Below, in pieces: positions 24,093-24,653 of a stretch of DNA of 64,000 nucleotides. A model generated the notes under the pieces. That model was given only the letters and a program-made list of their open reading frames with translations, had not been told where the DNA came from and did not search any database. The position numbers and the translations under genes are program-made. Position 1 is the first letter of the stretch. The number at the start of each line of letters is the position of its first letter. This stretch comes from Escherichia coli (lineage in GTDB: Bacteria; Pseudomonadota; Gammaproteobacteria; Enterobacterales; Enterobacteriaceae): assembly GCF_009931435.1 (NCBI RefSeq), contig NZ_CP043415.1; one strand, written 5' to 3'.

Positions 24093-24653
24093 AACAATAT
24101 ATGACTATATTTTCATGGAAGGAGATCACCCAATAACGATTCGGTGATTTCCTTCCATGAAAATACGCAACTAGGTAAGGAAATCGCTGTTAAAACAGAA
24201 GAACAGCTGTCAGTTATTGTTCTACACCGAACCCACTGACAACTGGTGAAGTTCAGAACCGCGCAGATTAATGCCCTGCACTGTGCGTTGTTGGAGTCCG
24301 GTGAAACCATCCACAAAGGTCGGGCAGCGATGGAGCAGGCAACGGGCCAAACCTGCTGCCGTCGCTTGGAGGATGCCGGCTGGCTTCGAACCCTGCGTGC
24401 GCCAGATCTGCGGCTGACCGTGGAGCTGACAGAGGCCTGACGGGCCGTGGCACAGCCTCCGCTGCAGGCTGAACAGGAACGCCTCCGTACAGAACAGCGC
24501 GCGGCGGAAGTCGTCGTTCTGCCGCAGGTCCCGGTATCAGGGTAAGCGTCAATACGGTGCTCCGTTGACGCTTACCATGGAACGTAGTTTTCACCGATAA
24601 ATAAGTGTCAATACGGGTAAGCGTACAGCGAGGGCCGTATTGACGGGGATGTG

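Follow-up and report, generated by a model that had tools for sequence, protein, structure and literature searches.

The ends of IS21-family elements typically carry multiple terminal repeats, the presumed binding sites of the transposase IstA. In ISEc12, whose left end (IRL) reads TGCGTATTTTCATGAAAGGAGATCACTCAATAAC and lies ~190 bp upstream of istA, and whose right end (IRR) reads ...GTTACTCACCGATCTCCTTCACGGTAATACGCA, copies of a core, GGAGATCAC, number at least three in the left end and two in the right, and this repeated core is presumably where IstA binds. The ISEc12 records have annotated istA and istB and are flanked by the target duplication GCCAGC. A different type of remnant involves inverted copies of an element. 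Deletion of the intervening DNA is promoted by close inverted repeats; an example is Tn10, whose 'nearly precise excision' reportedly leaves a palindromic remnant. From the perspective of mRNA, the REP/BIME palindromes, which are 3′ mRNA stabilisers, are also pertinent.

A long hairpin downstream of cdtC in the window (the whole 64,000-nucleotide stretch of Escherichia coli DNA that was analysed) has something in common with each of these. It is very probably a non-autonomous scar, in which two ISEc12-like IRL ends are joined by their inner sides with the outer termini facing outward. With the ends of ISEc12 its arms share the outermost ~30 bp and the core, and the right arm also the terminal TGCG...(CGCA). 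Unlike ISEc12, it is without istA/istB, internal subterminal repeats and a 5-bp target duplication, the pairing is IRL/IRL and not IRL/IRR, and one terminus is truncated. With the Tn10 remnant it would share the character of a short palindromic scar, formed from the outer ends of inverted IS copies whose interior has been deleted without transposase, though it comes from another IS family, by a route that we infer, and its left terminus is also truncated. As with the REP/BIME palindromes, there is a stable stem-loop downstream of the last gene of an operon and no U-tract; unlike them, the hairpin is IS-derived, shares none of their sequence and is present as a single copy at one locus, with no sign of selection.

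The hairpin and its fold

The two 21-mers of which the stem was composed in the preliminary description are placed as claimed, that at 24110-24130 exactly and its inverted partner at 24143-24163, on the minus strand, with one mismatch. By chance, zero inverted pairs of 21-mers are expected (100 shuffles of the window). The stem itself stands and is longer than first described, since the inverted repeat has arms of 27 nt each (24108-24134 and 24139-24165) that are complementary at 25 of 27 positions (93%) around a 4-nt centre; the 12-nt loop does not stand, as it closes further, by a 3-bp extension, to a loop of 4 nt. When compared with IS ends, the right arm reaches 24169. The hairpin is located 50 nt past the stop codon of cdtC and 15 nt past a first stem-loop, the smaller perfect hairpin that had also been pointed out, the arms of which (24066-24075 and 24083-24092; 10 bp) are 100% complementary.

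Folding of 24050-24180 as RNA, proposed as a check at the outset, gave -53.9 kcal/mol, where shuffled sequences averaged -23.9 (z = -8.28) and none of 200 did as well. The minus strand of the same interval, taken as RNA, has z = -7.06, and folding of the hairpin stretch as DNA gave z = -9.46. The long hairpin is a real, non-random feature.

The arms are both left ends of ISEc12 type

The preliminary description had held that a match of an arm to the end of a known IS would reduce the structure to IS debris, and a search outside the window yielded just such a match, to the extreme left end of ISEc12 (blast alignments in Table 1). What follows cdtC here is commonplace debris of a mobile element, not regulatory RNA. 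For annotation, the hairpin is not to be read as a regulatory element of cdt, and for biology it has little weight. A further suggestion, that of a remnant terminal inverted repeat, proved essentially right, both arms matching the IRL of this IS21-family element. Within the window the arm is found at this one site only. Elsewhere, the left 30 nt of the hairpin (24108-24137) recur in ~830 plasmids at ~93% identity, and the same ~30-bp end is present in several thousand E. coli records.

The left arm reads TATTTTCATGGAAGGAGATCACCCAATAAC, with the outermost TGCG missing. It begins TATTTT and the preceding GACTA is cdt flank; the loss amounts to the outermost 4 bases, or to no more than 6 when the TA at 24108-24109 is assigned to the cdt side. 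Over 30 nt this arm is identical, bar one base, to the IRL variants in records L003, L007 and L011. The right arm reads, on the minus strand, TGCGTATTTTCATGGAAGGAAATCACCGAAT, with a complete outer terminus, and on the plus strand it ends ...AATACGCA. Of the two ends, only the right arm has the TGCG...CGCA terminus. Comparison over 34 positions assigns both arms to the IRL type, so that there is no IRL and IRR pairing: the left arm matches IRL types at 28-29 positions vs 21-23 for IRR types, and the right arm at 27-29 vs 21-24. The core is GGAGATCAC in the left arm and GGAAATCAC in the right, each arm retaining one core copy within the outermost ~30 bp of an IS end.

In the window no istA or istB of ISEc12 type was found, its only IS21-family genes (~6.2-7.9 kb) being 24-30% identical in protein. 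The element concerned, a distant family member at 6212-7935 that is unrelated to the hairpin arms, has an IstA-like protein with 24% and an IstB-like protein with 30% identity to those of ISEc12 (tblastn).

Plasmid setting and boundaries

The window represents a Vir-type IncF plasmid of bovine necrotoxigenic E. coli and is, around cdtABC type III, 99.7-100% identical to pVir68 and its relatives. All records of cdt-III carry the palindrome. Its two sides have quite different affinities. To the left, the sequence is homologous (88.5%) to the cdt-V cassette carried by P2-like prophages, through cdtC and the small hairpin as far as 24109, where the window (...GACTATA followed by TTTTCATGG) parts from the phage sequence (...GACCATA followed by ATGGGG), and the chromosomal copies of cdt-V all stop at the same base in all the records examined. 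As the cdt-V homology stops there, the palindrome adjoins the cdt cassette precisely at its right edge and lies outside it. Position 24109, ~50 bp after cdtC, is in its own right a discrete edge of that cassette. The small hairpin is likely the native 3′ stem-loop of the cdt operon, though without a clear U-tract, and was not called as a terminator by a consensus scan.

On the other side, alignment with IS110-family sequence begins between 24167 and 24175, corresponding to about codon 102 of the transposase. Because this homology begins within the gene, the right arm is an IS terminus lodged inside an IS110 gene. The PGAP annotation of 24168-24338 on an identical plasmid is 'IS110 family transposase; internal stop; missing N- and C-terminus', and at the nucleotide level this segment is 81-84% identical to the IS110 copies of two records, L013, where the copy is intact, and L012, where it is truncated at the N terminus. 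Among database records, neither an empty site nor a full IS21-like element was found between cdtC and the IS110 fragment. Further downstream, IS66/ISEc8 sequence is annotated, with the ISEc8 end at ~24543. The stack of IS debris here (the IS110 fragment, the gene fragment that follows it and ISEc8) aids reconstruction of how the virulence region of the Vir plasmids was assembled, and the hairpin contributes to it as an unannotated scar of an IS21-family end that marks the right edge of the cdt-III cassette.

At the ISEc8 end, NZ_CP132984 and CP063740 are without 65-75 bp, at 24550-24614. The 75-bp indel of NZ_CP132984 had been considered as related to the hairpin and was discarded, since it maps to that ISEc8 end and is unrelated.

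Table 1. Coordinates of the hairpin, of features in its surroundings and of related miniature copies (positions are those of the window, except where another record is named)
Feature	Positions	Strand	Basis
Solo ISEc12 IRR-type end (TGTGTATTACCGTGAAGGAGATCGGTGAGTAAC) in disrupted IS110	1234-1266	+	ISEc12 positions 2548-2580, 32/33
cdtC (CDT type III subunit C), last gene of cdtABC	23513-24058	+	ORF; annotated cdtC in 99.7-100% identical pVir-like plasmids
Small GC-rich 10-bp hairpin	24066-24092	+	Perfect arms; within stretch homologous to cdt-V prophages
Left arm, IRL-type repeat	24108-24137	+	ISEc12 positions 4-33, 28/30
Right arm, inverted IRL-type repeat	24139-24169	-	ISEc12 positions 1-25, 23/25 (aligned at 24168-24144)
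IS110-family transposase internal fragment (~aa 102-158, stop codon)	24168-24338	+	PGAP pseudogene; tblastn 77% identity
Plasmid 'hypothetical protein' gene fragment (pseudogene)	24354-24542	+	PGAP; ~82% matches in many IncF plasmids
Miniature copy, L010	3001-3062		
Miniature copy, L016	1501-1562		
Miniature copy, L007	2999-3066		
Miniature copies, L017/L018	~1500-1566		
Miniature copy, L004	2500-2566		
Miniature copy, L006			
Miniature copy, L019			
Miniature copy, L015			

Related miniature elements

Miniatures that consist of an IRL and an IRR, 62-68 bp in all, are present in 2072 of 5426 complete E. coli genomes (~38%). Those sampled occupy three island loci: upstream of a GTPase/Ag43 pair, beside PerC/IbrB, and at the edge of a CbtA/YeeU island, where the copy adjoins a restriction-modification system. 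At the third locus, represented by Nissle 1917 and Eco889, the ends are exactly those of ISEc12 and 5 bp, CCAGG, are duplicated, in agreement with the 5-bp target duplication published for ISEc12 (PMC10711316). None of the examined copies is annotated as an IS end. A pattern scan of 100,044 species-representative genomes returned one related miniature. The contig that carries it, short and from a MAG, is identical to the copy at E. coli locus A, and the scan provides no indication that the miniatures have spread to other species. Neither ISEc12-derived miniatures nor the junction that the hairpin forms in pVir were found described in the literature. With ISEc12-type end pairs in ~38% of complete genomes, their recognition would be of modest value for IS annotation and for studies of IS decay.

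The hairpin is like these chromosomal miniatures in its build, a pair of IS ends of ~30 bp between which 0-11 bp remain, and in its IRL variant (GGAAGGAGATCACCCA). The miniatures pair IRL with IRR, and the sampled left ends that are intact (L007, L010/L016) begin TGCG. In contrast, the copy in the window is IRL/IRL, a near-perfect palindrome with a shortened left end, and is restricted to plasmids of pVir type.

Origin of the palindrome

A comparison with three cattle plasmids of pVirR1 type is informative about the order of events. In these, window positions 24141-24541 are represented at 90.4% identity (400 bp), with the identical right junction, ...AAAATACGCA followed by ACTAGGTAAGG, and there is no left arm and no cdtC. 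The pVirR1 arm is cut on its inner side, after ~31 bp, by unrelated sequence (...GGCGACAACTATCCTGACACAGGGGG). Since pVirR1 carries the joint of right arm and IS110 alone, that joint is older than the palindrome, and since the left arm is not there, the palindrome was built from two separate ends and not inserted as one unit. The inner sequences point the same way: the left arm has the canonical IRL sequence CACCCAATAAC and the right arm has CACCGAATCG, a variant that it has in common with pVirR1, so that the arms are independent IRL copies. Generation of the left arm by snap-back copying of the right was considered and is disfavoured, the canonical CACCCAATAAC of the left arm being absent from the right.

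The simplest scenario starts from the present right arm, a complete ISEc12-like terminus that lay within an IS110-family transposase gene before the palindrome existed. A second IRL copy, now the left arm, would have come to lie in inverted orientation, with everything between the two ends subsequently deleted, presumably in a transposase-independent manner, and the left terminus would have been trimmed where it became fused to the cdt flank. No intermediates, whether two inverted IS copies or a full ISEc12-like copy at the site, were found in databases. The database copies of the palindrome, in ~20 pVir-like plasmids, are all identical and at the same locus, and its conservation consequently argues neither for nor against function. 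Lacking one terminus and any cognate istA/istB in its vicinity, the palindrome most likely neither moves nor serves a dedicated function.

Weighing of alternative readings

That the cdt operon has a functional RNA element here, be it a second terminator, a processing site or a REP-like 3′ stabiliser, is what the very stable fold on the cdt sense strand and the proximity to a first stem-loop that lacks a strong U-tract might lead one to expect. Nevertheless, such an element is very improbable here. No U-run follows the stem on either strand (the sequence after it is AAAAUACGCAAC on the plus and AUAGUCAUAUAU on the minus), and consensus scanning of 23400-24700 on both strands detected no terminator-like site; no promoter consensus fits either. 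In Rfam 15 no family comes near its threshold, the best overlapping matches being of 26.1 and 22.9 bits vs gathering thresholds of 63 and 70. The hairpin lies beyond the cassette common to cdt-V, its sequence is fully explained by IS ends, and, with all copies identical, evidence from covariation is impossible. The absence of U-tract and terminator consensus, of an Rfam family and of any counterpart in the homologous cdt-V cassette also leaves the initial suggestion of a processing or attenuation element without support. Given read-through past the stem-loop of cdtC, the hairpin could be an incidental barrier to 3′ exonucleases, with no indication of selection for this, and it may have an incidental effect on the stability of cdt mRNA. 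A reading closer to the one favoured is that of an intact MITE of the ISEc12 group, a 62-bp unit that inserted between cdt and the IS110 fragment with duplication of ACTA and that would be mobilisable by IstA/IstB in trans. The 4-bp direct repeat ACTA is indeed immediately outside 24108 and 24169, and the widespread 62-68-bp miniatures, with the exact ends and 5-bp duplication of the Nissle/Eco889 copy, provide a precedent. Yet ISEc12 duplicates 5 bp, as is also the case for L010, and in the 5-bp register the flanks of the hairpin differ, GACTA vs ACTAG; each flank, moreover, has a homologue of its own at the matching place, ACCA in the cdt-V phage and GCCA in IS110. The terminal sequence is at one end only, the left terminus being without the TGCG of ISEc12, L007 and L010/L016, both arms are of IRL type, unlike in all the chromosomal miniatures sampled, pVirR1 keeps the arm and junction of the right side but has no left arm, and the palindrome is at a single locus in its ~20 plasmids. 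With these features an intact MITE is improbable.

Also considered was that the hairpin is part of the IS110-family element next to it, whether as the structure of a guide (bridge/seek) RNA or as a palindromic target that this element had recognised. The IS110-family pseudogene begins 0-2 bp after the right arm, and the second ISEc12-type end in the window, at 1234-1266, is likewise beside an IS110 fragment. A connection of this kind is hardly credible when the abutting sequence is from the middle of the transposase gene (~codons 102-158) and not an IS110 end or non-coding sequence, when the gene runs through the junction point without a hairpin in L013, where it is intact, and in L012, where it is N-terminally truncated and reaches further upstream, when the two IS110 fragments in the window are from unrelated members of the family, and when the arms match IS21-family ends. 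A broader proposal would unite the miniatures and the hairpin: pairs of ISEc12-type ends would be an unrecognised, occasionally mobilised family of miniatures in islands and plasmids of E. coli, the inner edge of the IS21-type end, ~31-34 bp from its tip, would be a recurrent breakpoint, and the IRL/IRL palindrome the excision scar of a composite, IS-bracketed unit, marking the joint of cdt capture. It is unlikely, and if it were true, the palindrome beside cdtC would mark the joint at which a phage-type cdt cassette was captured onto a Vir plasmid.

Other ISEc12-type ends and joints

The pieces of IS110 sequence flanking the solo IRR-type end (874-1174 and 1812-2390) match an element of the type in record L022. 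Positions 1177-1981 are absent from plasmid pD217IncF. A 23-kb unit containing cnf2 and cdt, bounded by this IRR end at 1234 and the IRL end at 24169 and lodged in one copy of IS110, was entertained and rejected, because the middle of the L022-type element has no match at 24170-24340 and because that type shares no nucleotide similarity with the L013 type, which the fragment beside the hairpin resembles. The 57 bp between the IS110 5′ fragment and the IRR end also count against it.

Downstream of an ORF of the size of cnf2 (15128-18172), the short segment 18558-18709 matches, at 85% identity, a part of pVirR1 whose annotation is that of an IS21-family transposase fragment, and shows no resemblance to IstA of ISEc12. 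Some 1.56 kb at 19040-20603, including a 288-aa ORF (19702-20568), are missing in pVir68, of which ~240 bp match either side of this interval.

Two unrelated plasmids, the Salmonella IncX1 plasmid CP082533 (L003, 2499-2560) and pVirR1 (L023, 3970-4032), have a common joint, in which a solo IRL-type end of 31-34 bp is followed by CCCC-TGTGTCAGGATAGTTGTCGCC. Similar sequence, ...AGGTAGTTGTCGCC, follows the solo IRR end in the window, at 1267-1292. The inner edge of an IS21-type end looks like a recurrent breakpoint, and is perhaps a hotspot for IS3-family insertion.
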